Notes under the pieces: model-generated
Told to the model about the DNA's origin: nothing
The model's input: only the letters and a program-made list of their open reading frames with translations
Database searches by the model: none
Shown: positions 14,185 through 56,293 of the stretch, one piece after another
How positions within the stretch are numbered: the first letter of the stretch is position 1
Layout of the letters: every line of letters starts with the position of its first letter
Assembly: GCA_016213525.1 (NCBI GenBank)
Contig: JACRAE010000004.1
Coordinates: forward strand, 13,269-77,268
DNA: 64,000 nucleotides
Origin: Candidatus Aenigmatarchaeota archaeon
GTDB taxonomy: Archaea; Aenigmatarchaeota; Aenigmatarchaeia; CG10238-14; SCSR01
Reading direction: 5' to 3'
Made by a program: the position numbers and the translations under genes

Positions 14185-14206
14185 CCGTGAGCCTCTTTAT
14201 GTTTCC

Positions 14207-14214: not shown

Positions 14215-14258
14215 GGCTCATAAACCTTGACATGCTGCTTCATGGAGCCGCTTCCTAC

Positions 14259-15158: not shown

Positions 15159-15159
15159 C

Positions 15160-16680: not shown

Positions 16681-16726
16681 CCAATTCCCCAATAACAATT
16701 TTTGGAATCTTGAAGTTATAGGTTAG

Positions 16727-34785: not shown

Positions 34786-34827
34786 GCTACCGCTCACTAG
34801 AATACATTTAACCTGCATATTAGATTA

Positions 34828-36174
34828 ATGATTATGGACGGGAGGCGTTTCCTCATAATCCTCGTCGCGGCGTCCCTCGCGATGAAGATACCCATCGCCC
34901 TCATGACGCATAGTTTTGGTGTAGACGAGAGCCTATACCTGTCGACCGCAAGGCAGTACGCAGAGACGGGAGTGTTCGGTCTACAGGAGGGACCGTACGA
35001 CTTCAGGTTCATAGCTCCCATGTTCGCCTTCGTCGCGTCGTTCTTCTATATGCTAGGCGGGGAGGGAGGCGTGCTGTTGATATCGCCGATTTTCACAACC
35101 CTCTCCCTTGTTGCAATCTATCTGCTCGGCAGACAGGTGGGCGGCGAGAAGGTCGGGAGGCTGGCCGCCTTGATGGGAATGTTCTCCTCCATACTCCTTC
35201 TCATGTCTTCCAGACCCCTCACCGAGGGCGTGGCGCTGTTCTTCTTCTCGGCCTCGATGCTGGCTATGAGCTCCGCCGCAAGGGACGGCTCGCATCGCGG
35301 CTGGCTGGTTGCCCTGCCCGTGCTGATGACCGCGACTTTCCTCTCCAGGTTCCAATACGGCTTCCTGATTGTGGTGTTCTTTGTGGCGTACGTCCTGTTC
35401 TCGGGGACCTACAGAAAATTTGCCGCTCCGGGTCTCCTTCTTGGCTGCCTGGCGGCGGCCGCTGTCGCCTCGCCTTGGATTTTGATGAACATGGCGAACT
35501 ACGGTAGCCCTCTCGGCGGCGCCGAACGCCAGGCCGGAACGGACGCCGGCTTCGATCCGTCGAGCGCTGTTTTCTACGTGCCGTACTTCTTCCTGATAGC
35601 CGGTCTGTATGCCCCGCTGGTTCTCTACGGTCTCTACAGGGCGGTCAAATCCAAGGACATGTTCCTGGTGATGTCCTTTGCCGTGGTCTTTGCCGCCCAG
35701 TTCCTCGTGTTCGGAAAGATAGTTGAAGAAAGATACTTGCTTCCGTTGCTGCCCGCGTCGCTGATCCTGGCCGCCGCGGGCTTCTTCGGCATGGCTAAAG
35801 GAGACAGGAGGTTGATGGGGATTGTCCTGATAGCCATCATGTTGGGAAGCCTGGCCCTCGGATACGGCGCGGTAAGCGTTTACCAGAACAACGCCCGATA
35901 CGACGACTCAAAAGACGCGGCGTTCTTTGTGAAAGAGAACTGCAGCTCCCCGGTAATGAGCAACTCTTTCGTCCACGTGTGGTATTACACGGGATATGAG
36001 AACATCCCCCTGCAGAAGGATATTTATGCGAGTCTGGAGGCTATGGGGGACAGGTCTGCCAACTGCATAATGTTCAGCGAATATGAGGCTCCGTTCACGG
36101 ACCCCTTCCGCGGCACGCCCTATGTGAAGACCGCGTTCGAGTCTTCGGGCGTCACCGTCTACAAGCTGTCATAG
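34828..36174 (+). CDS. GT-C fold membrane glycosyltransferase, PMT_2/ArnT-like
   Basis: 448 aa. First-loop motif FGVDESLYLSTARQY, then ...APMFAFVASFFYMLGG...ISPIFTTLSLVAIYLLGRQVGGEKVGRLAALMGMFSSILL (PMT_2 layout). There are multiple TM segments. Confidence 0.6.
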   Translation: MIMDGRRFLIILVAASLAMKIPIALMTHSFGVDESLYLSTARQYAETGVFGLQEGPYDFRFIAPMFAFVASFFYMLGGEGGVLLISPIFTTLSLVAIYLLGRQVGGEKVGRLAALMGMFSSILLLMSSRPLTEGVALFFFSASMLAMSSAARDGSHRGWLVALPVLMTATFLSRFQYGFLIVVFFVAYVLFSGTYRKFAAPGLLLGCLAAAAVASPWILMNMANYGSPLGGAERQAGTDAGFDPSSAVFYVPYFFLIAGLYAPLVLYGLYRAVKSKDMFLVMSFAVVFAAQFLVFGKIVEERYLLPLLPASLILAAAGFFGMAKGDRRLMGIVLIAIMLGSLALGYGAVSVYQNNARYDDSKDAAFFVKENCSSPVMSNSFVHVWYYTGYENIPLQKDIYASLEAMGDRSANCIMFSEYEAPFTDPFRGTPYVKTAFESSGVTVYKLS

Positions 36175-36212: not shown

Positions 36213-37496
36213 TTATTTCCCAACCTTGCTTCTGATGAATTTGGAAATAACATCAACGACGTACTCCCTCTGGTCCCTACTTATCCCCTGATGGCATCCT
36301 ATCAGGAACGAGTTGTTGTGGATGAACTTTGTGTTTTTCAGGTCGCCGGATTTTCTGTACCTTATGTTCTTCATCACTGGCTGTATCGTCACGTCCCCGG
36401 TCATCAGGGGCCTCGTCTCGACGTTGTTCTTCTCCAGGAACCCGACAAGCTCGTTCTTCGTGAACGGCGCGTCGGGCGCGACGGTTATCGGGTAGCTGAA
36501 CCACACGTTCCTGGTGCCCGGCCTCTCCTTCTTCAGCATGAGATAGTCGGAATAAGCTCCCAGCTCCCTGTTCCAATAATCGGCGGTCTCCCTCCTGATG
36601 TCTATGAAGTCGTCGAGCTTCTTTATCTGCTGCAGGCCGAAGGCCGCCTGGAGCTCGGTCGGCCTGAAGTTGAACCCGTTGTTGAGGAAGAGGAACCTCT
36701 CGTCGATGTCGCTGTATTTCTGAGATATCTCGCTTCTGTTCTTCAGGTCCCTTATCCATCCGAACACCCTCATTGACCTCGACATCTCATGTATGTCCTC
36801 GTTGTCGGTCACGACCATGCCGCCCTCTATCGTGTTTATGTGGTGGGACAGGTAGAAGCTGAAGGTCCCGACGTCCCCGAACGTCCCTATCTTCTTGTCG
36901 CCTATCATCGCCCCGTGCGCCTCGCAGGAGTCTTCAATCACATAGAGGTCCCTCTCCTCGGCTATCTCCATTATCCTCTTCATGTCCGCCGGGTCGCCGA
37001 GCAGGTGGACCGGCATTATTGCCCTCGTCTTCTCCGTTATGGCGGCCTCTATCGACTCGACGCTGATGTCGTAGGTAGACATGTCGACGTCGGTTATGAC
37101 TGGCGTGAGGCCGACGTTCGCTATCGGCGTCACCGTCGTTATCCAGGTCACCCCGGGTGTTATCACCTCGTCGCCAGGCATCATCCTGCCCTTGAACGAG
37201 GGCTCCGTCAGGACCGAGAGCGCTATCAGGTTCGCGCTGGACCCGGAGTTGGTCATGGTGCCGTACCTCGAACCCAGGTATCCGGAGAAGCTTCCTTCGA
37301 ACTTCCTCACCTTCTCGCCCATTGTCACGAATTTCGAAAACAGAGAATCCACGACCTCCTTTACCTCCTCGCTGCCATAGGACGGCACCTGGAGCGACAC
37401 CTTGCTCTTCCCCGGGACGAACTTCTCATCCTCGCCCTCGAAGTAGGAGTCTATGAGCTTGTCGATCTTGCCCCTCAATTCGTCCTTGTTTTCCAT
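36213..37496 (-). CDS. DegT/DnrJ/EryC1-fold PMP-dependent NDP-4-keto-6-deoxyhexose 3-dehydratase (RfbH/ColD-like), no Fe-S Cys cluster
   Basis: RfbH-like N-terminus (LRGKIDKLIDSYFE...FVPGKSKV.LQVPSYG.EE). The normally Lys-containing active-site motif reads FSFYLSHHINTIEGG, with the same spacing as E1 'SFYPAHHITMGEGG', so the Schiff-base Lys is replaced by His. There is no Cys cluster downstream. Trimmed to the ATG at 37496. Confidence 0.7.
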   Translation of the reverse strand: MENKDELRGKIDKLIDSYFEGEDEKFVPGKSKVSLQVPSYGSEEVKEVVDSLFSKFVTMGEKVRKFEGSFSGYLGSRYGTMTNSGSSANLIALSVLTEPSFKGRMMPGDEVITPGVTWITTVTPIANVGLTPVITDVDMSTYDISVESIEAAITEKTRAIMPVHLLGDPADMKRIMEIAEERDLYVIEDSCEAHGAMIGDKKIGTFGDVGTFSFYLSHHINTIEGGMVVTDNEDIHEMSRSMRVFGWIRDLKNRSEISQKYSDIDERFLFLNNGFNFRPTELQAAFGLQQIKKLDDFIDIRRETADYWNRELGAYSDYLMLKKERPGTRNVWFSYPITVAPDAPFTKNELVGFLEKNNVETRPLMTGDVTIQPVMKNIRYRKSGDLKNTKFIHNNSFLIGCHQGISRDQREYVVDVISKFIRSKVGK

Positions 37497-37559
37497 CAAA
37501 GCACCATCATATTTATTGACTGGGAATTGAACACTTAAACACTTTATTCCGCGTACGCG

Positions 37560-39374
37560 CTAGATTCTGAATATGTAATAGGTGTTGGCCCTCTCCCTGC
37601 TGAATCCGGGCTCCGCTATCTTGTACACGTGGGCCAGCTCCAGCCTCTGATTCATGTCCTCTATCGTGAACTTCCTCAAATCCAGGTCAAGCTGGTCTAT
37701 CATTATGTAGGACGCGTTGTGCTGCCTGCCGAAATTTATAACAGTGTCGGCGTCCTCGAACGGTATGGAGAGTATCTTCCTGTCCGTGGCCAGGTTCAGT
37801 ATGTGAATGTTGGTCCATCTTGCCATGATTACGTCGTCGACGCCGGTGTTCTGGTTAATCCAGCTCTGGGCATAGTCCGCCTTTATGTTGGACCTTATGG
37901 CGTATGTCGGGATTTGAACAAGCAGAAGTATGATTATCGCCACGTAGACAATCTTCCTCATGTGGGGTCTCAGCTTCTCGAGGAAGGCCACGCCGAGTAT
38001 GGCTAAGACGAACGCCTGCGGGAATAGGAAGTTGTAGGTGAAAGTGGTCCTCGTGTTCCATAATAGTAGGGACAGCGCGAACCCTATGATTATGTAGATT
38101 GCCAGGAAGTTCTTCTCCGTTATGGTCCTGCCGAGGGACTTCAGCAGGTAGTAAAGGGCGAATATCATTATCGGCATCGTTATGACCATCGACATTGGGT
38201 TCAGCACGAGGTTCAGGTTGGTCGTCGGGTCCCAGTTCATGAAGAAGTTGTCCTGGACCGCCTGGAACGGCAGAGGGAAGAGGGCGCGATATAGGTTCGT
38301 CGCTTTTGTGAACAGGTAGTCTCCGGGATGTGTCGTCGCCCACTCGACGAACTCCCCAAACGTGGGCTTGTCGAACGAGAACACCTGATCGAAGGCGCTG
38401 ACAAATATCACGGACCTGGAGCTGCTGTACAGCGGGTCGCCGTATATCACGTAGTTTCTCGCGAGCCAAGGCGACGTCACGAGGAGCATGAGGGCGAACA
38501 TGGTGAAAAACTGCCTGGTCAGTATCTGCTTACGGTCCGTCAGGAAGAAGTAGGCCAGGTAACTCAGTATGAGTATCGTGCCGGGGGCGTAGTGTGTTAT
38601 GTAAAGCAGCCCTGTCAGAATCCCAACGTAGTTCCAGTAGTCCCTGCCCTTCATGAAGAAGTAGATCGACGTGAGGGCCATGTATACCGTCGTCAGCCTG
38701 ACCTCCGACTCGAATGAATGTCCCATGATTATCGGATTGAATGCTATCAGGGCCGCGGCCACGAGAGCCACCCTTTCGCCACCTATCTTCTTGGCTATTA
38801 GGTACGTGGGGATGATTACGAGGACTCCCATGAGGACGTTGACCATCTTGGAAATGTAGAACGAAGTCCCGAAGATGTTGTAGAAGAACCCGAGTATGAA
38901 ATTGAAGAATGGGGGCCTGTAGTCCTCGGGGAACGGGAACTTTATCGGGGACCAGAAACTGTCGATTGCGTTGACCTCGAACCAGTCGTCCGTCGTGAAG
39001 GTCCTTCCCAGGTCCATGTGGAACGACGAGTCTCCGGCCAGGGGAGTCGGGAAAAGGAACTGCAGTGAGAACCTCAGGATGAACGCGGCCGCCAGTATAA
39101 CCAAGAGATACCTATGTTTTTTGAAGTTCGGTCTGAAGTCTACCTTCGTCTTCTTGTAGAGCACGAACGCGACTACTGGAATTATGGAAGCCAGAGAGTA
39201 TATCAGCGGTACGCCTAACATGTGCAGGAACAGTCCGAATCCCCCAAAAACAATGAAAGACAATACGAAGCTCATGGCGAGGCGCTCCATACCCCCAAGT
39301 CTCTTATCGAGCGATGCTAGGAGGTACCCCGGAATCAGGCCTATCGCCGCGACCAAAAATATCTCGTAGAACAT
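37560..39374 (-). CDS. GT-C fold membrane glycosyltransferase, PMT_2/ArnT-like (604 aa; paralogue of 44056..45855)
   Basis: DYRPPFFNFILGFFYNIFGTSFYISKMVNVLMGVLVIIPTYLIAKKIGGERVALVAAALIAFNPIIM matches the PMT_2 core. About 13 TM segments plus a C-terminal soluble domain ending NTYYIFRI. Confidence 0.6.
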   Translation of the reverse strand: MFYEIFLVAAIGLIPGYLLASLDKRLGGMERLAMSFVLSFIVFGGFGLFLHMLGVPLIYSLASIIPVVAFVLYKKTKVDFRPNFKKHRYLLVILAAAFILRFSLQFLFPTPLAGDSSFHMDLGRTFTTDDWFEVNAIDSFWSPIKFPFPEDYRPPFFNFILGFFYNIFGTSFYISKMVNVLMGVLVIIPTYLIAKKIGGERVALVAAALIAFNPIIMGHSFESEVRLTTVYMALTSIYFFMKGRDYWNYVGILTGLLYITHYAPGTILILSYLAYFFLTDRKQILTRQFFTMFALMLLVTSPWLARNYVIYGDPLYSSSRSVIFVSAFDQVFSFDKPTFGEFVEWATTHPGDYLFTKATNLYRALFPLPFQAVQDNFFMNWDPTTNLNLVLNPMSMVITMPIMIFALYYLLKSLGRTITEKNFLAIYIIIGFALSLLLWNTRTTFTYNFLFPQAFVLAILGVAFLEKLRPHMRKIVYVAIIILLLVQIPTYAIRSNIKADYAQSWINQNTGVDDVIMARWTNIHILNLATDRKILSIPFEDADTVINFGRQHNASYIMIDQLDLDLRKFTIEDMNQRLELAHVYKIAEPGFSRERANTYYIFRI

Positions 39375-39437
39375 GTCAAACCCGTACTATGGTTTGGAAT
39401 CAGTTAATATTATAATCTTTGATGGAGCACTTATTTC

Positions 39438-39980
39438 ATGAAATTCACGTGCACCGTCAGAGGCAAGATACTCCTTGATGCTTACAAGACCTGGATCAAA
39501 AACAACTCGTCCGTCCTTGACGTCGGTTGCGGGGACGGAAGCATGGGCAAAATGATCGGCGATGAGTTCAAGTGCGAAATACAGGGCACCGATATAATGG
39601 ACTTCGTGAAGGGAAGGATTCCATTCAAGATTATGAGCAGCGAGACCAAGCTGCCATACAGGAACAAGGAATTCGACTTTGCGATGCTGAACGACATGCT
39701 CCACCACACGAGAAAACAAAAGGAGATTCTTTTGGAGGCGTTGAGGGTCGCTGACAACGTCCTGATATTCGACACCAGGCCGACGTTCTCAGCCAAGGTG
39801 CTGGACCATGTGTTGAACTGGCAGCACAACGTGAAGATGCCGATACCGCTGACCCATAGGACGCCTGAAGGCTGGAAGTCTTTGTTCGAGAAGATGGGTC
39901 TCAAGTCAGAGTACAGGGAGCCGGAGCACTCGTTCATGTACCCGGTATCCCACTTCGCATTCAGGGTCTGGAAGAAGTAA
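39438..39980 (+). CDS. Class I SAM-dependent methyltransferase
   Basis: SAM motif I VLDVGCGDGSMG, an acidic residue after strand 2 (IQGTDI), and FDFAMLNDMLHH. 180 aa. Confidence 0.65.
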   Translation: MKFTCTVRGKILLDAYKTWIKNNSSVLDVGCGDGSMGKMIGDEFKCEIQGTDIMDFVKGRIPFKIMSSETKLPYRNKEFDFAMLNDMLHHTRKQKEILLEALRVADNVLIFDTRPTFSAKVLDHVLNWQHNVKMPIPLTHRTPEGWKSLFEKMGLKSEYREPEHSFMYPVSHFAFRVWKK

Positions 39981-39994
39981 AATTACCCCTACTA

Positions 39995-40705
39995 TCAAAT
40001 TTTGTTGAAGAGAAGCCTCATCACGGTATTGAAGTACAGAGGAGCGCTCTTCTTGAGGTTCATCTTCGACACGCCGCTCTTCCTGCCCATCCAGCTTATG
40101 GGTATGGTCTTGTACTTGTAGCCCTTGCGTATGGCCCTAATCGCTATCTCAAGGCTTATCTCGTAGCCGTCTGACACAAGATCCATCTTCTCAACGACCT
40201 CCCTCCTGTAGGCCTTGAACGACTGGGTTATGTCGCTGCACCTGACCCTGAACGCGGCCATTATGAAGAAGTTCGTCATCATCGAGAACACCTTCTTGAA
40301 TCTGGGGTAGTTCGTCACCTTCGCCCCGGGTACGTACCTAGAACCGAACGCCATGTCGTAGCCGCTGTTTATAATTTTGACATACTTCATCACATCGTCC
40401 AGCGAGTCGCACATGTCCCCGTTGAATGGGACGACTATCTTCCCCCGCGCCAGGCTGAAACCCTTCCTTATTGCCTTGCCGTACCCAGCGGGCTTCCACC
40501 CCTGAACGGCCCTAAAGTCGGAATATTTCCTCTGCATGCCCTTCAATATCTCCCATGTACCGTCGGTGCTGTCGTCAACTGCTATTATCTCGAAGTCTAT
40601 TCCTTTTTTGGTGAGGTATTTGTGGACCGTGCCTATGACCGTCTTAACGTACTCGTTCTCGTTCTTGAATGGTATGATTAGGGATAGTTCTTTCAACTGG
40701 ACCAA
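39995..40705 (-). CDS. Glycosyltransferase family 2, polyprenyl/dolichyl-phosphate sugar synthase-like (DPM1/ArnC/GtrB/AglD type)
   Basis: LSLIIPFKNE...FEIIAVDDSTDGT...GYGKAIRKGF..A.G..VVPFNGDMCD......GYDMAFGSRY...FKAYRREV...SDGYEISLEI. The first codon at 40705 is TTG, with no nearby in-frame ATG. Paralogue of 48877..49593. Confidence 0.7.
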   Translation of the reverse strand: MVQLKELSLIIPFKNENEYVKTVIGTVHKYLTKKGIDFEIIAVDDSTDGTWEILKGMQRKYSDFRAVQGWKPAGYGKAIRKGFSLARGKIVVPFNGDMCDSLDDVMKYVKIINSGYDMAFGSRYVPGAKVTNYPRFKKVFSMMTNFFIMAAFRVRCSDITQSFKAYRREVVEKMDLVSDGYEISLEIAIRAIRKGYKYKTIPISWMGRKSGVSKMNLKKSAPLYFNTVMRLLFNKI

Positions 40706-40761
40706 ATATAATTAGATTACTTAAATACTTGTCCTAATTAATCTATGATTGTGGTATTCAG

Positions 40762-41814
40762 ATGGCAGATTTAGAAAGCAAATTCAACGGCAGGACGGTG
40801 TTCGTGACCGGCGCGGACGGCTTCATAGGTTCGCACCTGACGGAGAAGCTCGTGTCGCTCGGCGCAAAGGTGCATGTTTTTGTGGAGTCTACGGCGCATG
40901 GTACCCTGACTAACATAGGGCACGTGGCCGACAAGGTGGTCGTCCACAGGGGTAACCTGACCGACGCGCACTCCCTCTTCATGGCCCTCAAGAAGATTAA
41001 GGAATCTGCTCACGACAAGACGTACATAATGCACCTTGCCGCCCAGGCCCACGTAGGGGAGTCCTGGGAGAGGCCCGTTGAGACTATAATGTCCAACACG
41101 ATGGGTACTTTCAACCTCCTACAGGCGATAGTCGACTCAGACATAGATGTCGAAAAGGTCGACTACGCAGGCACTTCAGAAGAGTACGGTAACAACTTGA
41201 ACCTCGACAACCTCGAGGACGAGACGATACACCTTCACGAGGACAGCCCGGTGAACCCGAAGAGCATATATGCGACCTCTAAGCTCGCGGGGGATTTCCT
41301 GACGATGAACTTTTTCCACGCATATGGCCTGCCTGGAGTGGTGACCAGGATGTTCAACAACTACGGACCCAGGCAAAGCCCCAGGTACATAACGGGCACG
41401 ATAATCACACAGGCCCTCTGCAGGGACAACATCATTCTTGGGAATCTGACGCCCAGGAGGGACTTCTGCTTCGTCGAGGACGGCGTCAGAGGCCACATGC
41501 ACACGACCCTCATGGGCAAGCCGGGCGAGATTTACTGCTATGGCTACGGGAACGACATATCAATTCAGGGATGGGCGGACCTCATCTTGAAGATAGGAAA
41601 GCAGAACGGCTACTGGGGCGACAAGAAGTTATCATCGACGAAGACCAGGTTCAGACCGGGGGAAAGCGACGTCCTGAGGCTGAAGGTCGGCTTCACCAAG
41701 CTCAATAAGCTGACCGGGTGGACGCCACAAGTCACTTGGGAAGAGGGGATACTTAGGACAATCGACTGGTATTCCAAGAACAAGGACAAGTGGGTCGGCC
41801 TGAAAGACTGGTGA
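40762..41814 (+). CDS. SDR NDP-sugar 4,6-dehydratase, Gmd-like
   Basis: VFVTGADGFIGSHL, GTSEEYG, YATSKLAGD, and FNNYGPRQSPRYITGTIITQA...ILGNLTPRRDFCFVED (Gmd-type LGNL..RD block). Confidence 0.7.
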   Translation: MADLESKFNGRTVFVTGADGFIGSHLTEKLVSLGAKVHVFVESTAHGTLTNIGHVADKVVVHRGNLTDAHSLFMALKKIKESAHDKTYIMHLAAQAHVGESWERPVETIMSNTMGTFNLLQAIVDSDIDVEKVDYAGTSEEYGNNLNLDNLEDETIHLHEDSPVNPKSIYATSKLAGDFLTMNFFHAYGLPGVVTRMFNNYGPRQSPRYITGTIITQALCRDNIILGNLTPRRDFCFVEDGVRGHMHTTLMGKPGEIYCYGYGNDISIQGWADLILKIGKQNGYWGDKKLSSTKTRFRPGESDVLRLKVGFTKLNKLTGWTPQVTWEEGILRTIDWYSKNKDKWVGLKDW

Positions 41815-41819
41815 GCTGG

Positions 41820-42812
41820 ATGTCCTTCTACGAGGGCAAGAGGGTCCTGGTCACCGGCGGCACTGGAATGATAGGATCCCATCTAGCGGAGATTCTCGTG
41901 GACCAGGGCGCGGACGTTAGGATTAACGAGTTCCGAACTCCGGCGGAAAATATTTTTTCCAATGAATATTTAAAAAAGATGGAAGTTATCAAAACAGACC
42001 TCACTGAAAGAGAGGGATGCGAAAAGGCCGTAAGGGGGATGGAAGTCGTTTTCAACCTCGCGACTAGGATAACGGGCGTCATCGGCAACATCGAACATCC
42101 CGTTCAGATGTTCACGCCGAATGTTTTGATGCAGACAAACATGATAGAGGCTGCCCATAAGGAAAACGTCGACAGGTATCTGTACCAGAGCTCGGCTTGT
42201 ATATACTCCTCTGAGTGCGAGATCCCCTACGAGGAAAAAGATGGAATGAAAAGCATCCCCGACAGGACCAACGAGGCCTACGCTTGGATGAAGAGGATGG
42301 GAGAGCAGCAGGCCATATTCTACCATAGAGAATTTGGAATGAAGATTGGCATATCCAGGCCTTTCAACACTTACGGGCCGCGGGATAACTTCGGAGGTGA
42401 GACGTCGCACGTTATACCCGCAATGATAGTAAAGGCAGAAAGCAGGACAGATCCGTTCAGTATATGGGGAGATGGTAGCTCGACGAGGGACTTCGTCTAT
42501 GTCACCGACATGGCCAAGGGCGCCATGAGGGTCTTGGAAAAGCATCCGAAGGCCGATCCAATCAACATAGCTAGCGGGAGAGAAATAAGCACACTGGATC
42601 TAGCCAAGATAATTTTGAAAGAGAGCGGATTTGTGGATGCGAAATTGGAAGTCGACGATACGAAGCCCGGCGGGCAAAGGAGGAGGTGCGGGAGCGTCGA
42701 AAAGATGCGGAATGTACTTGAATTCGAGCCCGAAGTTGGACTGGAGTCTGGTATAGCTAAGACCGTTAGATGGTTCAGAGAAAACAAAGATAAAATCAAA
42801 CGATACAAGTAG
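41820..42812 (+). CDS. SDR NDP-4-keto-6-deoxyhexose epimerase/reductase, GDP-L-fucose synthase (Fcl/ColC)-like
   Basis: VLVTGGTGMIGSHL, QSSACIYSSECEIPYEE, NEAYAWMKRMGE (YxxxK) and RPFNTYGPRDNF. Trimmed to the ATG at 41820, 5 nt after the upstream stop; the track's GTG at 41790 is inside the previous gene. Confidence 0.6.
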   Translation: MSFYEGKRVLVTGGTGMIGSHLAEILVDQGADVRINEFRTPAENIFSNEYLKKMEVIKTDLTEREGCEKAVRGMEVVFNLATRITGVIGNIEHPVQMFTPNVLMQTNMIEAAHKENVDRYLYQSSACIYSSECEIPYEEKDGMKSIPDRTNEAYAWMKRMGEQQAIFYHREFGMKIGISRPFNTYGPRDNFGGETSHVIPAMIVKAESRTDPFSIWGDGSSTRDFVYVTDMAKGAMRVLEKHPKADPINIASGREISTLDLAKIILKESGFVDAKLEVDDTKPGGQRRRCGSVEKMRNVLEFEPEVGLESGIAKTVRWFRENKDKIKRYK

Positions 42813-42819
42813 TGGGTAT

Positions 42820-44055
42820 ATGAGAATAACTCGATGCAGGATATGCAAGTCCGAAGACCTGTACAAATTCCTGGATTTGGGGATGCACCCGCCGTCTGAT
42901 GCTTTCCTGAAAAAGGATCAACTGGACTCTGTTGAAGAGAAATTTCCCTTGGATGTGTATTTCTGCGGCAGCTGCTGCCTGGTTCAACTGGGTTTCGTGG
43001 TGCCGCCAGAGAAGCTTTTCACAAAAAACTACGTCTACGTGTCTTCGATATCGACCACAATGAGGTCTAACTGGATGGACATGGCTGCTGAAATAAATAA
43101 GAAGTTTGGCGTCCCTGAGGGGTCTTTGGTGGTGGATATTGGCGGAAACGACGGGACCCTCCTAAAATGCTTCCATGACAGCGGTTTTAGTGTCACGACT
43201 CTGAACATAGACCCGTCCGACGTTGCCAAGACCAAGGTATCTGAGGATGTCGACGTCATTAATGATTTTTTTAGCGAAAATGTGGCGTCCGAAGTGGCGA
43301 AGAAGTTCGGCAAGGCTAGAATAATCACGGGTACTAACGTGTTCGCCCATGTCGACGATCTAGATGATTTCATGCGCGGCGTCGGTGCTCTGCTGGAAGA
43401 CGATGGTGTGCTAGTCCTAGAGTTCCCCTACTTGATGGACCTACTGGAGAAAATCGAGTTTGACACGATATACCACGAGCACCTCTCCTACCTTTCGGTT
43501 GGACCCCTTATCAAACTCTATGAGAGGTTTGGTATGATTATAGTCGACATAGACAGGATACCGGTGCATGGTGGGTCCCTGAGGATTTTTGTAAAGAAGA
43601 AGGGCCTTGGAACGGTCGCCGCCAAAAATGTGCAAGATCTCGTCAGGCTTGAAAAGGAGCGGGGTCTGTACGACTTGGAAACTTACAAGGACTTTTCAGT
43701 CAGGGTCTCTAATCTCAAAAAAAATCTCGTCGCTATGTTGAGGGACCTGAAATCAGGCGGAAAGAAGATAGCCGGCGACACGGCCCCCGCCAAGGGCAAC
43801 ACTCTCCTGAATTACTGCGGTATCGATGACAATGTCCTCGACTTCATAGCCGAAATAAATCCGATAAAACAGGGTCTCTACACTCCAGGAACACACATAC
43901 CTGTGGTACCACTCGAAAAAATCTACGAAGATAAGCCAGACTATCTGCTCATCTTGGCCTGGAATTTCAAGGACGATATAATGCGTCAGCAAAAAGACTT
44001 TCGTGAATCTGGCGGTAGGTTCATAGTTCCAGTGCCGGAGCCCGAGATAGTCTGA
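42820..44055 (+). CDS. NDP-hexose C-methyltransferase (TylCIII/EvaC-like; Zn-binding N-domain + class I MTase + C-methyltransferase C-domain)
   Basis: N-terminal four-Cys motif RCRICKS...YFCGSCCLVQL. SAM motif VVDIGGNDGTLL. NVFAHVDDLDDF. C-terminal ...TIYHEHLSYLS...DRIPVHGGSLRIF... is the typical three-domain layout of sugar C-methyltransferases. Confidence 0.7.
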   Translation: MRITRCRICKSEDLYKFLDLGMHPPSDAFLKKDQLDSVEEKFPLDVYFCGSCCLVQLGFVVPPEKLFTKNYVYVSSISTTMRSNWMDMAAEINKKFGVPEGSLVVDIGGNDGTLLKCFHDSGFSVTTLNIDPSDVAKTKVSEDVDVINDFFSENVASEVAKKFGKARIITGTNVFAHVDDLDDFMRGVGALLEDDGVLVLEFPYLMDLLEKIEFDTIYHEHLSYLSVGPLIKLYERFGMIIVDIDRIPVHGGSLRIFVKKKGLGTVAAKNVQDLVRLEKERGLYDLETYKDFSVRVSNLKKNLVAMLRDLKSGGKKIAGDTAPAKGNTLLNYCGIDDNVLDFIAEINPIKQGLYTPGTHIPVVPLEKIYEDKPDYLLILAWNFKDDIMRQQKDFRESGGRFIVPVPEPEIV

Positions 44056-45855
44056 CTATGTTTTGAATATGTAGTAGGTATTCTTGTGTTCCTTGAATAT
44101 CCCCTTCTCATACACGTTGTAGGTTCCTACATTCTGGAAGTTCTCACCCAAGAAATCCAAGTCCACTGTGTAGGCGCTGGAATTCAGATTTTTGTTGAGT
44201 AGCGACCCGACGAAAACGTCGGTATCGTCCACAACGATGTAATCGGCCCCGCTTTCATTCACAAAATTCAAAAACTGCTGCTGGCTCCCGTAACGAATCG
44301 CTATTGTGCTCCTCCCGGTCAAAAAATTGGTGACGTACGTGTCTGTCCATCTCAACATTATCTTGTCCTCAATCTCCGTGTTCTGCGTTATCCATGATTG
44401 CGCAAAGTCCCTCCTCACATCGTTTTTCAACGTGTAATTGCCCACCTGCAATATTATGAAGATTACTATCAGAACCGCTATAGCCTTCTTGTATTTGCTT
44501 CCTATTTTCTCGAAGGCCGAGAATGCTGCCACGCTAAGCAACGCTACCTGTGGGAAAAGTATGCTAAGTTCTATCGGAATTATTATGTTGGTAACCGCGA
44601 TTGCGAACGCGAAACCTACTATCACATAGACTAAGATTACATCGAGTTGTCTTTTCGCCCTCATTGCAGCCTTCACCAGATAAATCATGGAGAGCGCTGC
44701 TATCGGAAGCGTTAGGAAAGATATGAAAGATCTGTTAATCATGTTCTCATTTGAGAGGAAGTTCAGATTGAAATTGCCGCCTGTGAACGGAACTGGGAAA
44801 ACCGCCCGCAGGAAAATAAACAATTTGTCGCGGATTACCTGAGAAATTTCTTTCTGGGCGCTTGGTTCGTTTCCTGGTAGGAGAAGAATCTCATACTCGC
44901 TGTTTAGATTCACGAACCTGCTAGAGGAAGATGTGAGCGGCGACCCGAAAAACTCGTAGTTTCTGACAACCCATGGCGAAACTATGATCAGAGACAAAAT
45001 TATAGCCATGGTGTTCTGCTTGGTTATCACGCCCCTGAACCTGGACTTTACTAGAAATATCAGATATGTTATGCCCAGAATTATGGATTCCGGATAGTGT
45101 ATTAGGAAAGTAATGGTCAGAAACAAGAACGATAATGCCAGATTCTTGGACATGAAGAAATACAACGATGTTAGGGCCGCGTATGCGGTTATTATCCTGA
45201 CCTCGGTGTCCACCGACTGTCCTATGAAGAATGGGCTTACCGCTATGAATACCGAGGCGAAAAGCCCCGCCTTCCCGTAGGATCTTCCGATAAGAAATAT
45301 GGGAACTATCATTAGGGTGCCTAGGATGACATTCGTGAACTTCGCTATCTCGTAGCTCTGACCGAATACACTAAAAAATAATCCTGTGACGAAGTTGAAG
45401 AAAGGTGGCCTGTCGTCAACTGGACATGGAAAATCCGAGCATTGCATAGCCCCTATCGTGTTGACGTTGACGGAAAACCAGTTTGGGGTCGTGAAAGTCT
45501 TAGCCAGGTCCATATGAAGGAATGTATCGAACCCAAACGGGAAGTCGAATAGGAACTGCATCGCGAACCTCAGCAAAAATGCCGCCAACAGGACCAACAA
45601 AAGGCTTGTTGGGAACGATATTTTGGTTTCCGGCTTCCTCACCAACAAAATTAGCGGAAGTAAAAATACGGACACTAGGGAATACTCCAACGGGATGCCG
45701 AACAAGTGCAAAAATACCCCTACACCCCCCAAGAACAGAAATCCTAAAAAGAAACTCACAGCGAGCCTTTCAACACAGTCTAGACGCTTGAAGTAAGACG
45801 CGATGAAATATCCGGGCAGTACGGATATGAGAAGCATAGACACTATCTCGAACAT
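44056..45855 (-). CDS. GT-C fold membrane glycosyltransferase, PMT_2/ArnT-like (599 aa; paralogue of 37560..39374)
   Basis: DDRPPFFNFVTGLFFSVFGQSYEIAKFTNVILGTLMIVPIFLIGRSYGKAGLFASVFIAVSPFFI. It shares the N-terminus (..LPGYFIAS..KRL..VERLAVSF..) and the C-terminal NTYYIFKT with 37560..39374. Confidence 0.6.
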   Translation of the reverse strand: MFEIVSMLLISVLPGYFIASYFKRLDCVERLAVSFFLGFLFLGGVGVFLHLFGIPLEYSLVSVFLLPLILLVRKPETKISFPTSLLLVLLAAFLLRFAMQFLFDFPFGFDTFLHMDLAKTFTTPNWFSVNVNTIGAMQCSDFPCPVDDRPPFFNFVTGLFFSVFGQSYEIAKFTNVILGTLMIVPIFLIGRSYGKAGLFASVFIAVSPFFIGQSVDTEVRIITAYAALTSLYFFMSKNLALSFLFLTITFLIHYPESIILGITYLIFLVKSRFRGVITKQNTMAIILSLIIVSPWVVRNYEFFGSPLTSSSSRFVNLNSEYEILLLPGNEPSAQKEISQVIRDKLFIFLRAVFPVPFTGGNFNLNFLSNENMINRSFISFLTLPIAALSMIYLVKAAMRAKRQLDVILVYVIVGFAFAIAVTNIIIPIELSILFPQVALLSVAAFSAFEKIGSKYKKAIAVLIVIFIILQVGNYTLKNDVRRDFAQSWITQNTEIEDKIMLRWTDTYVTNFLTGRSTIAIRYGSQQQFLNFVNESGADYIVVDDTDVFVGSLLNKNLNSSAYTVDLDFLGENFQNVGTYNVYEKGIFKEHKNTYYIFKT

Positions 45856-45917
45856 AAACGTAATTTCACTCGAACAGTTATAAGATATATTTAAACGCGG
45901 ATTTTGATTAATATCTT

Positions 45918-46796
45918 ATGAAAATTTTGGTCACTGGTGGGTCGGGTTTTGTGGGTACTCATTTAATCAACAGGCTTGCGGAAGAACACGAAACCGTCAA
46001 CTTGGATATCAGGAGCCCCCCGCAGCCGAATAAGGCAGACACCTTCATCAAGTGCGACATAACCGACTACAATAGCCTCAAAAAAACATTCGAGAGCGAT
46101 CTGAAGGACATAGACGCCATTTATCACCTGGCTGGATTGTCGAGGGAATCTGAGAGCAACAAGTTTCCGGAAACTTACAACCGCACCAATGTCAATGGCA
46201 CGTTCAACGTAATAGACGCCTCCAGATTCACGAGCTCCAAGAAGTTTATTTTTGCATCCACATTCCTGGTTTACGGGGAGCCCGTATATCTACCGATAGA
46301 CGAAAATCACCCAAAGGACCCCAAGAGCATATACGCCTCTACTAAGCTCTGCGGGGAGACCATATGCAACGCGCATCAGGAAATATACGGCGTGAAGACT
46401 GTAAAGTTCAGGAAGAGCATAATCTACGGAGAGGACGATTTGGAGAAAAGAATAGTTTCGTTGTTCATAGACAAGGCGAAATCTGGAAAAGACCTCACGG
46501 TCTTTGGTAACAAGTTCCTAGACTTTGTCTATATAGAGGACGTCATATCTGCCTACATTTCCGCCCTGAAGAAGGACGTTACTGGAGACTTTAACATCGG
46601 AACTGGTGAAAAGGTCACGCTGCTAGACCTGGCTAACATGGTAAGGGACATAGTGAACCCCGGCGTGAAGGTGGTCGAAGACGGCCTGAGGACTGGAGAG
46701 ATAAAGGGCTATAACCCCGACATATCGAAAGCCAGAAAATTACTGGATTTTAACCCCCAACAAGATTTAATATCCTTCATCAAGAGATGTATATGA
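45918..46796 (+). CDS. NAD(P)-dependent SDR epimerase/reductase (candidate 4-ketoreductase partner of the downstream 3-dehydrase)
   Basis: MKILVTGGSGFVGTHL, ASTFLVYG and YASTKLCGE. 292 aa. Its stop overlaps the start region (ATG x3 at 46787/46793/46796) of the RfbH-like gene. Confidence 0.7.
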   Translation: MKILVTGGSGFVGTHLINRLAEEHETVNLDIRSPPQPNKADTFIKCDITDYNSLKKTFESDLKDIDAIYHLAGLSRESESNKFPETYNRTNVNGTFNVIDASRFTSSKKFIFASTFLVYGEPVYLPIDENHPKDPKSIYASTKLCGETICNAHQEIYGVKTVKFRKSIIYGEDDLEKRIVSLFIDKAKSGKDLTVFGNKFLDFVYIEDVISAYISALKKDVTGDFNIGTGEKVTLLDLANMVRDIVNPGVKVVEDGLRTGEIKGYNPDISKARKLLDFNPQQDLISFIKRCI

Positions 46797-48112
46797 TGGA
46801 TGAGGCTGAGATAAGAAACAAGATATCTTCCCTGGTAAGAGACTTCTTCGAACTGAAAAAATCAAAGAAATTCACCTTCGGAAAGGATCTTATTCAGTAT
46901 TCCGGTGATGTGAAGGACGAAAACGAGATTGACGCCTCCATACAAACGTTACTCGACGGTAGGCTCGCTGCTGGGAAGCAGGTAGAATCATTCGAGAACG
47001 AATTTGCAGATTATCTCGGCGCGAGACACTGCGTTGCCGTCGGCTCTGGAACAGCCGCCGATCTCATTAGCCTGAACGCGCTCCAGAACGAGCACCTAGA
47101 AAATCCGATGAGAAAGGGAGACGAGGTCCTAACGTGCGCCTTGAACTTCGCCACCCCTATGAGCTCGATACTTTTCAATGGTTACAAGCCTGCCCTAGTG
47201 GACACTACTCTTGGGAAGTACACCATGGACGTTGACGATATAGAAGCATCCATAACCGAGAACACCAAGGCTATACTAGCAGTCCACCTGTTCGGCAATG
47301 TTTGCAACCTAGACAAGATAATGAAGATAGCGAAGAAGCATGGTCTCTACGTAATTGAGGATTGCTGTGATTCCGCAGGTTCAATGTACGACGGCAAAAT
47401 GATAGGTACTTTCGGGGACATGGGTACCTTCAGCTTCTATCCTGCCCATCAAATGACGACTATGGAGGGCGGCATGATATCTACGAATAACGAGAACATG
47501 AACTACTTGCTCAGGTCCCTCAGGATGTGGGGAAGAGCTCTTCCTTGTCCCTACTGTGGTGACGATATGGGTAAGTCGTGCAAGCTGAGGCACAATCTCA
47601 ACATAGGCAACATAGGCAGATATGATTTGGCTTACCTTTTCATAAATCAGGGCCATAACTCGAAGCTCGTCGAGGTACAGGGAGCATTCGGAAGGGAACA
47701 GCTCAAGAAGCTCCCGAATTTCAACGAAATACGCCGGGATAACTTCAGGGAGACTGTAAAGGCCCTGAGACCGTACGAGGATCAATTAATTTTGCCAGAG
47801 GCTGAAAAGAATTCCGACCCGGCTTGGTACTCCATACCCCTGACAATCAGGGACGGGGCCGGTTTCAACAGGGAAGACATAACAAACATGCTCAAAGAGG
47901 CGAAGATAGAATTCCGCTACCTGTTCACGGGCAACATACTAGACCAGCCGGCCTTCAGAAACATAGAAAAGAGGATACACGGCGACCTTACGAACGCAAA
48001 CAAGACCACCACAGACTCGTTCTTCATAGGATGCTACCAGGGGATAAACCCCGACATGCGCGAGTATATCATAGAGAAAATGGTCGGATTCTTAGAAAAA
48101 CATAAGAACTGA
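46787..48112 (+). CDS. rfbH: CDP-4-keto-6-deoxy-D-glucose 3-dehydrase (E1/RfbH/DdhC)-like PMP enzyme with Cys cluster
   Basis: RfbH-like N-terminus (IRNKISSLVRDFFELKK...F.FGKD.IQYSGDV.DENE). The active-site motif FSFYPAHQMTTMEGG has His in place of the Lys. Four candidate Fe-S Cys are present (EDCCDSAG ... ALPCPYCGDDMGKSC), spaced C-x59-C-x2-C-x7-C. Confidence 0.75.
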   Translation: MYMMDEAEIRNKISSLVRDFFELKKSKKFTFGKDLIQYSGDVKDENEIDASIQTLLDGRLAAGKQVESFENEFADYLGARHCVAVGSGTAADLISLNALQNEHLENPMRKGDEVLTCALNFATPMSSILFNGYKPALVDTTLGKYTMDVDDIEASITENTKAILAVHLFGNVCNLDKIMKIAKKHGLYVIEDCCDSAGSMYDGKMIGTFGDMGTFSFYPAHQMTTMEGGMISTNNENMNYLLRSLRMWGRALPCPYCGDDMGKSCKLRHNLNIGNIGRYDLAYLFINQGHNSKLVEVQGAFGREQLKKLPNFNEIRRDNFRETVKALRPYEDQLILPEAEKNSDPAWYSIPLTIRDGAGFNREDITNMLKEAKIEFRYLFTGNILDQPAFRNIEKRIHGDLTNANKTTTDSFFIGCYQGINPDMREYIIEKMVGFLEKHKN

Positions 48113-48129
48113 GGGCTTCTGTTGGTTAT

Positions 48130-48870
48130 ATGAAAATAATAATTTTCATGCCAGCCTACAATGCCGCCAAGACCATAGAGAGCGTTTTTCCGAGAATCCC
48201 GAAAAGTGTGTACCGGAAATTACATAAAATAATCATAGTGAACGATGGTAGCAGGGACGACACCGCGAAAGTCGTAAAAAAATTATCTCGATTATACAAG
48301 AAAATCAAACTGATTACTCACAAGGTTAACAGGGGATATGCCCAGACGCAAAAAACTGGGTACAAAGCAGCCTTGGCGATGGGTGCGGACGTTGTAGTAA
48401 TGCTTCACTCCGACGGCCAATATTCTCCGGAATATCTCGACAAGCTTCTAGAGCCTCTCGAGAATAACAAAGCTGACGTCGTCCAGGGCTCCAGAATATT
48501 GGGCGGGGAGGCTTTGAAGGGAGGTATGCCCTCATACAAATTTGTGGGCAACAGGATATCGTCATTTATTGAGAATATAGTTTCCGGGCTCGATATATCG
48601 GAGTACCATTCGGGCTACATGCTCTATAATAAAAAGGCTCTGACAAAAATACCGTTCGAGAAGCTTGCAGACATTTACCATTCTCACAAGGGAACTTGCC
48701 ACTATGATGGTGAGATGATTTTGATATCGAACCGCATGGGACTCAGAATAAAAGAGGTTCCCATACCAACAATATACGCTGGCGAGATATCGCACGTAAA
48801 TCCTTACACGTACGGATTTGAGGTGCTGCAAGTTATAATCAGATATGTGACGAAACGTTACAAGTTCTAA
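48130..48870 (+). CDS. Glycosyltransferase family 2
   Basis: IIIFMPAYNAAKTI...IIIVNDGSRDDT...NRGYAQTQKTGY...VVMLHSDGQY (DxD-type region) ... VQGSR. Confidence 0.7.
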   Translation: MKIIIFMPAYNAAKTIESVFPRIPKSVYRKLHKIIIVNDGSRDDTAKVVKKLSRLYKKIKLITHKVNRGYAQTQKTGYKAALAMGADVVVMLHSDGQYSPEYLDKLLEPLENNKADVVQGSRILGGEALKGGMPSYKFVGNRISSFIENIVSGLDISEYHSGYMLYNKKALTKIPFEKLADIYHSHKGTCHYDGEMILISNRMGLRIKEVPIPTIYAGEISHVNPYTYGFEVLQVIIRYVTKRYKF

Positions 48871-48876
48871 ATCCTA

Positions 48877-49593
48877 TTATCTCTCTATCCTCAGCCTGAG
48901 AGCCTCCAGCATTATCCTTCCGTATCTCCAGCCTTGTTTGTAGAGTCCCGTGAACTTTGCTTTGCCGCTCTTCCTATTCCTCCAGATGGTGGGAACTTCC
49001 AATATCTTTACTTTATTGACAACCATGGGCTTCAATATCATCTCAGAAGTTATCTCGAATCCGTCGCTGTTAATCGTGATATTTTTAAATATACTTTTCC
49101 TGTAGGCCTTGAAGGCGTTCGAAAAGTCCTTGATGTTCTTCATGAAAACCAATGCTAGTGCCTTGTTGTAAATCCTGTGAGCTAGATATTTCATATACGG
49201 GTAGTCCACCGTACGTCCGCCCCTGATGAATCTGGACCCAACAACTATATCATAGCCCTTCTCAATCTCGCGCACCATTCTTGGAATCGTATTAGGGTCG
49301 TCCGACATGTCAGCCATGAACGGCATGACTATGCTTCCTCTGGAATTCTCCAGCCCTGTTTTTATGGCTCTGCCGAATCCGTTTGGATATTTCCTATGAA
49401 TCGCCCTCACGACCCTGTATTTTCTTGACAAATCGTCCACAATCTTTGGTGTGTTGTCGCTACTCACGTCGTCCACCAACAATATTTCAAATTTCAGGCC
49501 CCTACAGGCCCTCAAAAGACTGGAAACGCATCTTGAAAGGTTTCCCTCCTCATTGTGTGCTGGCACTATTATTGTCAACATGTTTTTCGTCAT
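48877..49593 (-). CDS. Glycosyltransferase family 2, polyprenyl/dolichyl-phosphate sugar synthase-like (second copy)
   Basis: LTIIVPAHNEEGNL...FEILLVDDVSSDNT...GFGRAIKTGL...VMPFMADMSDD...GYDIVVGSRF...FKAYRKSIF...SDGFEITSEM. Paralogue of 39995..40705. Confidence 0.7.
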   Translation of the reverse strand: MTKNMLTIIVPAHNEEGNLSRCVSSLLRACRGLKFEILLVDDVSSDNTPKIVDDLSRKYRVVRAIHRKYPNGFGRAIKTGLENSRGSIVMPFMADMSDDPNTIPRMVREIEKGYDIVVGSRFIRGGRTVDYPYMKYLAHRIYNKALALVFMKNIKDFSNAFKAYRKSIFKNITINSDGFEITSEMILKPMVVNKVKILEVPTIWRNRKSGKAKFTGLYKQGWRYGRIMLEALRLRIER

Positions 49594-56291: not shown

Positions 56292-56293
56292 TT

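Follow-up and report, generated by a model that had tools for sequence, protein, structure and literature searches.

The stretch of DNA analysed here (the window; 64,000 nt) comes from Candidatus Aenigmatarchaeota archaeon, an uncultured member of the DPANN, and our interest centres on positions 36213–49593. Genes in this region encode DegT-fold sugar enzymes, polytopic membrane proteins of the glycosyltransferase GT-C fold, and small family-2 glycosyltransferases (GT2s) that resemble synthases of lipid-phosphate-linked sugars. An earlier description, made from the sequence only, had sorted them into two parallel triads, each composed of a 3-dehydratase, a GT2 and a GT-C, and had proposed that each triad delivers a deoxysugar across the membrane on a polyprenyl-type carrier. 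We find that the evolutionary unit is a dyad of GT2 and GT-C, and that the deoxysugar cassette is a lineage-specific attachment. The proteins correspond to MBI4894355/56/66 of a metagenome-assembled genome (MAG) labelled Candidatus Aenigmarchaeota archaeon, the phylum now being named Candidatus Aenigmatarchaeota. Archaeal origin is confirmed by the window's genes for RadA, ribosomal proteins S3Ae and S13/S15, and STT3/AglB. The genes of the core region are listed below (SDR, short-chain dehydrogenase/reductase; NDP, nucleoside diphosphate; SAM, S-adenosylmethionine; TM, transmembrane; Dol-P, dolichyl phosphate).

36213–37499, minus strand: DegT A, predicted ColD-like, pyridoxamine 5'-phosphate (PMP)-dependent NDP-4-keto-6-deoxyhexose 3-dehydratase (Pfam DegT, 325 bits)
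37560–39374, minus strand: GT-C A, 604-aa polytopic protein with predicted GT-C fold (PMT_2, 50 bits; Foldseek)
39438–39980, plus strand: 180-aa SAM methyltransferase, MetW/Methyltransf_23-like (Pfam), between GT-C A and GT2 A
39995–40705, minus strand: GT2 A, 236 aa, similar to Dol-P/polyprenyl-phosphate monosaccharide synthases, without TM anchor (PDB, NCBIfam)
40762–41814, plus strand: SDR350, NDP-hexose 4,6-dehydratase-like (NCBIfam LegB-like, 198 bits, and dTDP-glucose 4,6-dehydratase, 158 bits, both below cut-off)
41790–42812, plus strand: SDR340, GDP-fucose-synthase (Fcl/ColC)-like epimerase/4-reductase (NCBIfam GDPFucSynFcl, 192 bits, below cut-off)
42820–44055, plus strand: NDP-sugar C-methyltransferase with zinc-binding N-domain, SAM domain and C-methyltransferase C-domain (Pfam Methyltransf_14, 198 bits; Methyltransf_13, 81 bits)
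44056–45855, minus strand: GT-C B, 599-aa divergent paralogue of GT-C A (PMT_2, 43 bits)
45918–46796, plus strand: SDR292, NDP-sugar epimerase/reductase (NCBIfam and Pfam SDR matches)
46787–48112, plus strand: DegT B, predicted E1/RfbH-type 3-dehydratase (Pfam DegT, 298 bits; NCBIfam RfbH equivalog, 440 bits)
48130–48870, plus strand: GT2 C, 246 aa, lipid-phosphate type, no TM segment (PDB; NCBIfam PpgS, 67 bits)
48877–49593, minus strand: GT2 B, 238 aa, similar to Dol-P monosaccharide synthases (PDB, AF2 model, Foldseek)

All six open reading frames (ORFs) picked out in the sequence-only reading, namely the A and B copies of DegT, GT-C and GT2, are present. For DegT A, the coordinates above include an alternative start one codon earlier (TTG, 36213–37499), and the NCBI call of 427 aa (MBI4894355.1) agrees with an end at 37496. 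The three paralogue pairs are real: DegT A and B share 36% identity (E 2e-100), GT-C A and B 34% over the full length (E 5e-111), and GT2 A and B 33% (E 5e-42). Identities of 40–50% had been estimated by eye; the measured range of 33–36% indicates a deeper divergence, in keeping with the view that the duplication was not recent. A recent duplication is rejected on the same numbers. The quoted sequence motifs (LPGY..AS, KRL, ERLA.SF, RPPFFNF, NTYYIF, FKAYR and SDG.EI) were all recovered, and Pfam agrees with the family calls for both copies of DegT (325/298 bits), PMT_2 (50/43 bits) and Glycos_transf_2 (86 bits for GT2 A, 121 for GT2 B). Genes that had gone unlisted are GT2 C (48130–48870), two further PMT_2 GT-Cs (34828–36174 and 26500–28185) and aglB (11842–14184).

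By sequence similarity, both DegT-fold proteins are classed as His-type 3-dehydratases, DegT A being ColD-like and DegT B E1/RfbH-like. Pfam PF01041 (DegT_DnrJ_EryC1) matches each over its full length. Among proteins in the PDB, DegT A is equidistant from E1 (3bcx, 2e-79) and ColD (2gms, 4e-79), and DegT B matches E1 end to end (3bcx, 1.3e-99); the first aminotransferase in the ranking lies ∼30 orders of magnitude behind for DegT A and >50 for DegT B. E1/RfbH is the CDP-6-deoxy-L-threo-D-glycero-4-hexulose 3-dehydrase and ColD the GDP-4-keto-6-deoxymannose 3-dehydratase, and both share with the window proteins the DegT fold and a His in place of the catalytic Lys; the window differs in that its host is an archaeon. 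In HMMER alignments to 3bcx, 3bb8 and 2gms, His219 of DegT A and His221 of DegT B align with H220 of E1 and H188 of ColD, as the earlier claim of a Lys-to-His replacement had it. H220 is the residue mutated to Lys in 3bb8, and the His is invariant in 6/6 orthologues. The RfbH equivalog of NCBIfam has a cut-off of 423 bits, which DegT B exceeds (440) and DegT A does not reach (369); RfbF and RfbG equivalogs were not found in the window (NCBIfam). DegT B, which probably carries a 2Fe-2S cluster, has the cysteine motif C194-X59-C254-X2-C257-X7-C265, which its orthologues keep and which aligns with the Fe-S cysteine region of E1. The E1 spacing, which we take to be C-X57-C-X1-C-X7-C, is one or two residues off that of DegT B. 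DegT A has only two Cys and, like ColD, lacks the Fe-S cysteine insertion.

Could these proteins instead be ordinary sugar aminotransferases that use pyridoxal 5'-phosphate (PLP), as part of an Arn-like amino-sugar system? NCBI does label them 'DegT/DnrJ/EryC1/StrS family aminotransferase', a generic name, and a distant relative (L011, below) has a Lys-type DegT beside its GT2/GT-C pair. However, the catalytic Lys is replaced by His in both proteins and throughout the orthologues, the nearest solved relatives are E1 and ColD by the wide margins given above, and DegT B exceeds the RfbH cut-off. These data contradict the aminotransferase assignment, which we consider very improbable, and they set the window proteins apart from ArnB. 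Rare sugars such as 3,6-dideoxyhexoses are mostly not predicted in Archaea (PMC7725333).

Sequence comparison supports placing GT2 A, B and C in the lipid-phosphate-type class. For all three, the best solved relative is the Dol-P mannose synthase of P. furiosus (PfDPMS, 5mlz; 3.5e-26 for GT2 A, 1.8e-32 for B and 1e-13 for C). ArnC and GtrB follow PfDPMS in the rankings of GT2 A and B; for GT2 C, both rank lower, behind ordinary GT2s. The AF2 model of GT2 B has a pLDDT of 93.7, and its first 22 Foldseek matches are all chains of PfDPMS, ArnC or GtrB, with TM-scores of up to 0.83; superposition on 5mlz gives a TM-score of 0.83 and a root-mean-square deviation of 2.6 Å, at 30% identity. The ordinary 289-aa GT2 of the window (28228–29097) served as an internal control: its best matches in the PDB were chondroitin synthase, TagF and SpsA, and none of the lipid-phosphate enzymes appeared. 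GT2 A and B thus group with polyprenyl-phosphate synthases by sequence, and GT2 B also by fold. The possibility that they are ordinary enzymes with soluble acceptors was rejected in view of this similarity and of the contrast with the control. The best NCBIfam families are Dol-P hexose transferase, AglJ, ArnC, PgfS and PpgS, the first three being the best matches of GT2 A, all below cut-off, and PpgS (67 bits) that of GT2 C. Because all of these scores (34–76 bits) are far below the equivalog cut-offs (325–529), the likeness holds at the level of class and donor specificity cannot be read from it. The four-helix TM domain of PfDPMS has no counterpart in the window proteins, which stop after one C-terminal helix. 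In the GT2 B model this is a long helix (214–237) whose 18-residue hydrophobic moment (0.61) ranks third in the protein. In lacking an anchor, the window GT2s are like human DPM1 and PpgS.

GT-C A and GT-C B score 50.1 and 43.4 bits against PMT_2, for which the gathering cut-off is 26.1, and both are polytopic, with roughly 12 hydrophobic helices at least. No PDB sequence matched GT-C A even at E 1. The model of GT-C A (pLDDT 66; predicted TM-score 0.75) was therefore compared by fold, and Foldseek returned AglB/STT3, DPY19, ArnT, Pmt4 and ALG12 (E 6e-6 to 7e-4; TM-scores of 0.38–0.51), and also AftA. Judged from the PMT_2 matches and this model, the 600-aa proteins are GT-C-fold members of a rare family. 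D115, H119, D121 and RPPFFN of GT-C A are invariant, the first three lying in a loop after the fourth helix; this loop should face outside, given the Lys/Arg-rich loops at 21–30 and 75–87. The family is small, with 10 homologues in a word-index search of 5.8 billion sequences and 31 representatives (E<1e-30) among 1.84 billion. Scanning 185,579 GTDB species genomes with a GT-C alignment revealed no relative; in metagenomes, the corresponding scan recovered L005 as its only locus, a repeat of L002. GT-C A is the conservative paralogue and GT-C B the divergent one, with only 3 homologues besides itself. The window defines a rare, uncharacterised subfamily of ∼600-aa GT-Cs with a fixed small GT2 partner.

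Synteny was assessed on contigs reached by exact-protein look-ups, together with the metagenome locus L005 (loci in relatives are designated L001, L002 and so on). A neighbourhood of GT2, GT-C and His-type DegT is present in all five relative lineages with enough contig, and hence the concern that the triad might not be syntenic in any relative can be set aside. L003 and L006+L007 carry a GT-C A that is 78–85% identical and repeat the layout of the window. In L007, the genes for GT2 A, GT-C A and DegT A all run in one direction, ∼65 nt apart, GT2 A being an 87% orthologue directly upstream of GT-C A; in L003, a family-4 glycosyltransferase (GT4) gene intervenes between GT-C A and DegT A. The 180-aa methyltransferase gene is kept in L003 and not in L007. 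Two further loci have a GT-C that is ∼50% identical. L001 shows the order GT-C(448)/GT2/GT-C(600), with a His-type DegT A orthologue two genes on, and L002/L005 are ordered likewise, their DegT A orthologue being one gene on from the GT-C. Overall, L001, L002/L005, L003 and L007 have DegT A orthologues (58–89% identity) in the vicinity of GT-C A-type genes; in the window, 60 nt separate DegT A from the preceding GT-C A. SDR292 and DegT B are conserved together in L002, L003 and L006. In the window these two genes overlap by 10 nt, and GT2 C starts 17 nt after DegT B, co-directional with both.

These comparisons do not bear out two tidy triads as the conserved modules. GT2 lies directly beside GT-C in L001, L002/L005, L007, L009, L011 and the contig of protein P0009, and the distant loci L009 and L011 have other cassettes at the dyad. 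In L009 the dyad is found beside heptose-pathway genes, with no DegT, and in L011 beside an Arn-like set comprising UDP-glucose (UDPG) dehydrogenase, formyltransferase, a Lys-type DegT, a second GT2 and an SDR. L002/L005 contain orthologues of both dehydratases but, in the DNA seen, one 600-aa GT-C and one adjacent GT2. The pairing of A with A and B with B is likewise crossed by orthology. The adjacent GT2s of L001, L002/L005, L009 and L011 are 39–62% identical to GT2 B versus 29–36% to GT2 A, and the GT-Cs of the same loci are 26–51% identical to GT-C A versus 22–36% to GT-C B; the GT2 beside the GT-C is therefore B-type and the GT-C nearer to A. GT2 A is a divergent paralogue, with 33–36% identity to the canonical B-type. 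DegT B, which had been grouped with GT2 B, is co-directional with GT2 C instead. GT2 C has a 49% identical orthologue in L009 (14532–15290) that adjoins a 678-aa Dpy19-like GT-C, and this suggests that GT2 C belongs to a separate type of dyad. Relatives of the GT4 encoded at 16727–17932 in the window (w16727 type) were found in L001 (11799–12974) and L003 (11805–12998), and genes of this type stand beside the GT-C A-type gene in L001, L003 and the P0009 contig. In the window, the w16727-type gene is ∼20 kb away from GT-C A, beside the other Wzx-like gene.

Several details of the distant loci are recorded here as separate observations. L011 is NCBI GCA_014727915.1, WJMO01000004.1; its Arn-like cassette spans 12740–16654, includes a 260-aa GT2, and is directly beside the dyad of GT2 and a 579-aa GT-C. 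Upstream lie a second GT-C of 506 aa and split transketolase genes. B12-binding radical-SAM genes adjoin the GT2/GT-C genes in both L009 (15291–16685) and L011 (16751–18250), and may encode sugar-modifying enzymes.

We also considered a wider sample of 80 GTDB loci with GT2-B-type homologues (36–43% identity). The focal GT2 was lost through longest-ORF gene calling in 26 of the 80, leaving 54 for analysis. GT-C neighbours were judged by a TM-count heuristic, the A1 profile being too narrow and missing PMT_2 proteins found by Pfam. By this measure, a protein of at least 380 aa with at least seven TM segments lies within two genes of the GT2 in 24 of the 54 loci; 3 of 10 large polytopic proteins tested are PMT_2. 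Any DegT within 10 kb was seen in only 4/54, and the full His-type triad in none of these 54 loci. Also of note are L054 (12806–14224) and L086 (12976–14709), where a His-type DegT (SFYPPHH and SFYYAHH, respectively) occurs within 10 kb of a small DPMS-like GT2. The hosts are a Verrucomicrobiae MAG and a Planctomycetaceae MAG, and no GT-C was detectable nearby.

The region 36213–49593 is the core of a surface/N-glycan (agl) island of roughly 45 kb beside aglB; glycan genes run from about 11.8 to 63 kb, and aglB marks the island as an N-glycosylation locus. The island encodes four PMT_2 GT-Cs (561, 448, 604 and 599 aa) and three lipid-phosphate-type GT2s. Its predicted cytoplasmic glycosyltransferases comprise six or seven of GT4 type and one ordinary GT2, seven or eight in all. 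Further genes specify about a dozen SDR sugar enzymes, the C-methyltransferase, two UDPG dehydrogenases, a phosphoglucomutase/phosphomannomutase and two nucleotidyl (NTP)-transferases. Features of the island outside the core region are as follows.

11842–14184, minus strand: AglB (STT3) oligosaccharyltransferase (Pfam STT3, 76 bits)
15160–16698: Wzx-like flippase gene (Pfam)
16727–17932, minus strand: GT4 (w16727 type), beside the Wzx-like gene at 15160–16698
26500–28185, plus strand: fourth GT-C, 561 aa, PMT_2 (Pfam), adjoining the ordinary 289-aa GT2
28228–29097: ordinary 289-aa GT2, the internal control above (PDB)
32231–33256, plus strand: AglH/WecA-like initiating sugar-1-phosphate transferase (Glycos_transf_4; Pfam, 106 bits)
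33259–34818, minus strand: candidate Wzx/AglR-like polysaccharide flippase (Pfam Polysacc_synt and MatE)
34828–36174, plus strand: third GT-C, 448 aa, PMT_2 (Pfam, 50 bits), kept upstream of the dyad in relatives, with 46–74% identical orthologues in L001, L002, L005 and L007
49610–50758, minus strand: class-I (AspAT/GntC-like) aminotransferase (NCBIfam and Pfam)
51803–52018, minus strand: 71-aa ORF with two predicted TM helices (TM prediction; no Pfam match)

AglB/STT3 is directly upstream of the glycan genes, beside those for RadA, ribosomal protein S3Ae and S13/S15 (9613–10590, 6238–6795 and 8182–8643, all on the minus strand). In L002, L005 and L006, too, the DegT B block has this class-I aminotransferase gene as a neighbour (60–73% identity).

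The best explanation, to which we assign a probability of about 0.7, is that the island uses an AglD/AglR/AglS-like or three-component logic, in several copies, as part of an N-glycan locus that also makes rare deoxysugars. Building on the observed enzyme families and folds, the catalytic His, the paralogy and the GT2–GT-C adjacency, we infer the lipid carrier, the flippase, the acceptor and the sugar that each GT2 loads as follows. SDR 4,6-dehydratases would turn NDP-hexoses into 4-keto-6-deoxy intermediates, from which the two PMP/His-type 3-dehydratases, DegT A and DegT B, would take off the C3 hydroxyl. Reductase/epimerase SDRs and the C-methyltransferase would then complete rare 3,6-dideoxy and/or C-methyl-branched sugars. 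On the cytoplasmic face, GT2 A, B and C would each load one sugar from its nucleotide donor onto dolichyl phosphate; after flipping, probably by Wzx/AglR-like proteins, the GT-C-fold transferases (604, 599, 448 and 561 aa) would attach the sugar to glycan or protein outside the membrane. The Arn/Gtr/AglD-AglS logic invoked by the sequence-only reading is sound in general terms.

In Haloferax volcanii, AglD, AglR and AglS supply the N-linked pentasaccharide with its last sugar by way of Dol-P-mannose: the GT2 charges dolichyl phosphate with one sugar in the cytoplasm, a Wzx-like protein has been implicated in the flipping step, and the sugar is added outside by a membrane transferase (PMC3871713). 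The window shares with this system the agl context beside aglB. It differs in that its GT2s are short (236–246 aa), have no TM domain and fall below the AglJ and haloarchaeal Dol-P-hexose-transferase cut-offs, in having three such GT2s and four GT-Cs, and in that its 600-aa GT-C family is rare and uncharacterised. Bacterial three-component systems combine a lipid-phosphate GT2 with a GT-C, often beside a dedicated sugar-modification cassette (PMC11127046). Of the bacterial systems compared (GtrA/GtrB/GtrC; ArnC/ArnE-F/ArnT with ArnB; PpgS/Rv3779; pentofuranose), ArnC and GtrB are among the nearest structures to GT2 A and B, and ArnT is among the fold matches of GT-C A. The carrier in the window differs in presumably being dolichyl rather than undecaprenyl phosphate.

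Several observations weigh against this explanation. The first Asp of the DxD motif, DAD in PfDPMS, is replaced in the window GT2s (NGD in GT2 A, MAD in GT2 B). The second Asp is invariant (D95 in A3); at the first position the subfamily consensus, PxMADLSDDP, has Met or Ala, and GT2 A has Asn. TM prediction gave no anchor for GT2 A, B or C. No ORF for a small four-TM flippase of the GtrA type was found in the window by TM prediction, nor was an ArnE/F-like one, in which the locus differs from the bacterial systems. The model of GT-C A is only moderate, with the D115/H119/D121 loop at pLDDT <50, so the catalytic site cannot be verified in it. For DegT B, no E3/AscD-type (ferredoxin-reductase-type) partner was found among the scanned ORFs of the window, a further difference from E1; a general cellular reductase could stand in for E3, as reported for SpnQ. 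Finally, none of the SDRs and NTP-transferases scores above an equivalog cut-off (NCBIfam), so that the nucleotide (CDP, GDP, dTDP or UDP) and the identity of the sugar are not fixed.

Given an island that both makes deoxysugars and runs lipid-phosphate dyads, the question is whether the former ride on the latter. The sequence-only reading held that a 3,6-dideoxysugar is carried on Dol-P. Part of this stands, in that the DegTs are 3-dehydratases by the evidence above and GT2 A, in both L007 and the window, runs in the same direction as GT-C A and DegT A; the remainder is weakened by a cytoplasmic GT4 route being on offer and by the triads not being strict. That the dehydratase product is the Dol-P-borne sugar strikes us as unlikely. 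We are similarly doubtful of the broader proposal that at least one small GT2 loads a 3,6-dideoxy and/or C-methyl-branched deoxyhexose onto Dol-P for transfer outside by a 600-aa GT-C; the best candidates for such loading are GT2 A, encoded in the same direction as GT-C A and DegT A, and GT2 C, encoded in that of DegT B. In its strictest form, each dehydratase would make a 3,6-dideoxysugar that the neighbouring GT2 loads and the neighbouring 600-aa GT-C transfers. The tight, co-directional arrangement of L007 fits this, as do the 60-nt spacing of GT-C A and DegT A in the window and the presence of a DegT A-type gene zero to two genes from GT-C in the window/L007, L003, L001 and L002/L005. Moreover, the block at 36.2–45.9 kb contains a full ColD-type pathway (SDR350, DegT A and the Fcl-like SDR340), and its sole glycosyltransferases are GT2 A and the GT-Cs; L011 places an Arn-like cassette beside a dyad of the same family, an arrangement known to feed the lipid-phosphate route in bacteria. 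Strict triads are difficult to reconcile, however, with two dehydratases accompanying a single 600-aa GT-C and adjacent GT2 in L002/L005, with the DegT-free dyad of L009, with the crossed orthology, and with the orientation of DegT B alongside GT2 C rather than GT2 B. In L002, DegT B is in a co-directional run with two GT4 genes, and in L001, L003 and the P0009 contig a GT4 is between or beside GT-C and the DegT A cassette. We regard the strict form as unlikely. A literature search on lipid-phosphate-linked rhamnose or fucose found no paper, a weak negative that counts against the Dol-P route. As far as we are aware, the known 3,6-dideoxyhexoses have NDP-sugar donors and cytoplasmic transferases, and we know of no lipid-phosphate-linked deoxyhexose donor; this one would be the first, in a DPANN archaeon.

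Alternatively, the dehydratase products may remain NDP-sugars and be used by GT4s to build the lipid-linked oligosaccharide, with the dyads adding ordinary hexoses (mannose or glucose) outside, as AglD/AglS do. We put entry of the dehydratase product through a cytoplasmic GT4, and this account as a whole, not far short of an even chance. In its favour, the island has six or seven GT4-type genes and an AglH-like initiator, two Wzx-like flippases and AglB. In L001 the w16727-type GT4 is co-directional with an SDR of the DegT A cassette, in L003 and the P0009 contig it adjoins GT-C, and the two GT4s that run with DegT B in L002 point the same way. GT2-B-type proteins stay 39–62% identical as the sugar cassettes change completely, which fits a constant, common donor, and JGI annotates many homologues as dolichol-phosphate mannosyltransferase. 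Against this account stands the close packing of GT2 A with GT-C A and DegT A, seen both in L007 and in the window. In addition, GT2 A has diverged far from the B-type (33–36%), as expected after a change of donor, and the window's GT4 genes are >10 kb from DegT A. A further arrangement would pair the proteins crosswise, with GT2 B and GT-C A as the ancestral dyad and GT2 A and GT-C B as a second pair that makes a 6-deoxy-C-methyl sugar through its own cassette. Relatives do have a GT2 nearer to B and a GT-C nearer to A, and donor-matched partners should co-evolve, conservative with conservative and divergent with divergent; GT2 A and GT-C B also bracket the cassette of SDR350, SDR340 and the C-methyltransferase (39995–45855), SDR350 being divergent from GT2 A at a distance of 56 nt. 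Yet GT2 A is the neighbour of GT-C A both in L007 and in the window, and identities of this kind would also result if a whole dyad had been duplicated and its copies had then diverged unequally. Nor was any independent lineage with a GT-C B-type gene available. Crosswise pairing is thus a tentative proposal, with a chance of roughly one in three.

The components of this system are of known kinds, and what would be new is the deoxysugar riding on the lipid. As a locus, it is an unusually rich surface-glycan island for a DPANN archaeon, with four GT-Cs, three Dol-P-type GT2s and two 3-dehydratases. Few archaea have had their N-glycosylation pathways elucidated, and glycosylation is unexplored in this group of organisms. 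If a deoxysugar is carried on Dol-P, the donor range of lipid-phosphate synthases and GT-Cs extends to dideoxy or branched deoxysugars. One family of dyads would then be fed by interchangeable cassettes (3-dehydratase, heptose or Arn-like) in a plug-in architecture, and re-tooling of the dyad by exchange of the adjacent sugar cassette would be useful for glyco-engineering.

Some minor features of the window remain to be described. The 71-aa ORF is placed between an RmlD-like SDR and two GT4 genes; it has a homologue of 75 aa in L002 (14908–15135) and is called as a gene in L004. By analogy with DPM3, its two-TM product could be a membrane partner of the anchor-less GT2s. The sole tRNA of the window is tRNA-Leu(CAG), at 2227–2313. 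ORFs with no Pfam match occur at 1220–2134 (minus strand, 304 aa), 8918–9670 (minus strand, 250 aa) and 25841–26266 (plus strand, 141 aa). The SDR ORFs at 55260–56405 and 56294–57409, both on the minus strand, overlap by 112 nt as listed; a Logan gene call of 343 aa implies that the downstream SDR gene starts at an internal MSILITGG. GC content is 0.43–0.50 across 42–54 kb versus 0.56–0.58 in the flanks. GT-C B, GT2 B, GT2 C, the DegT B block and two GT4s all fall within this low-GC stretch, which may represent glycan genes that were horizontally acquired or are evolving fast.

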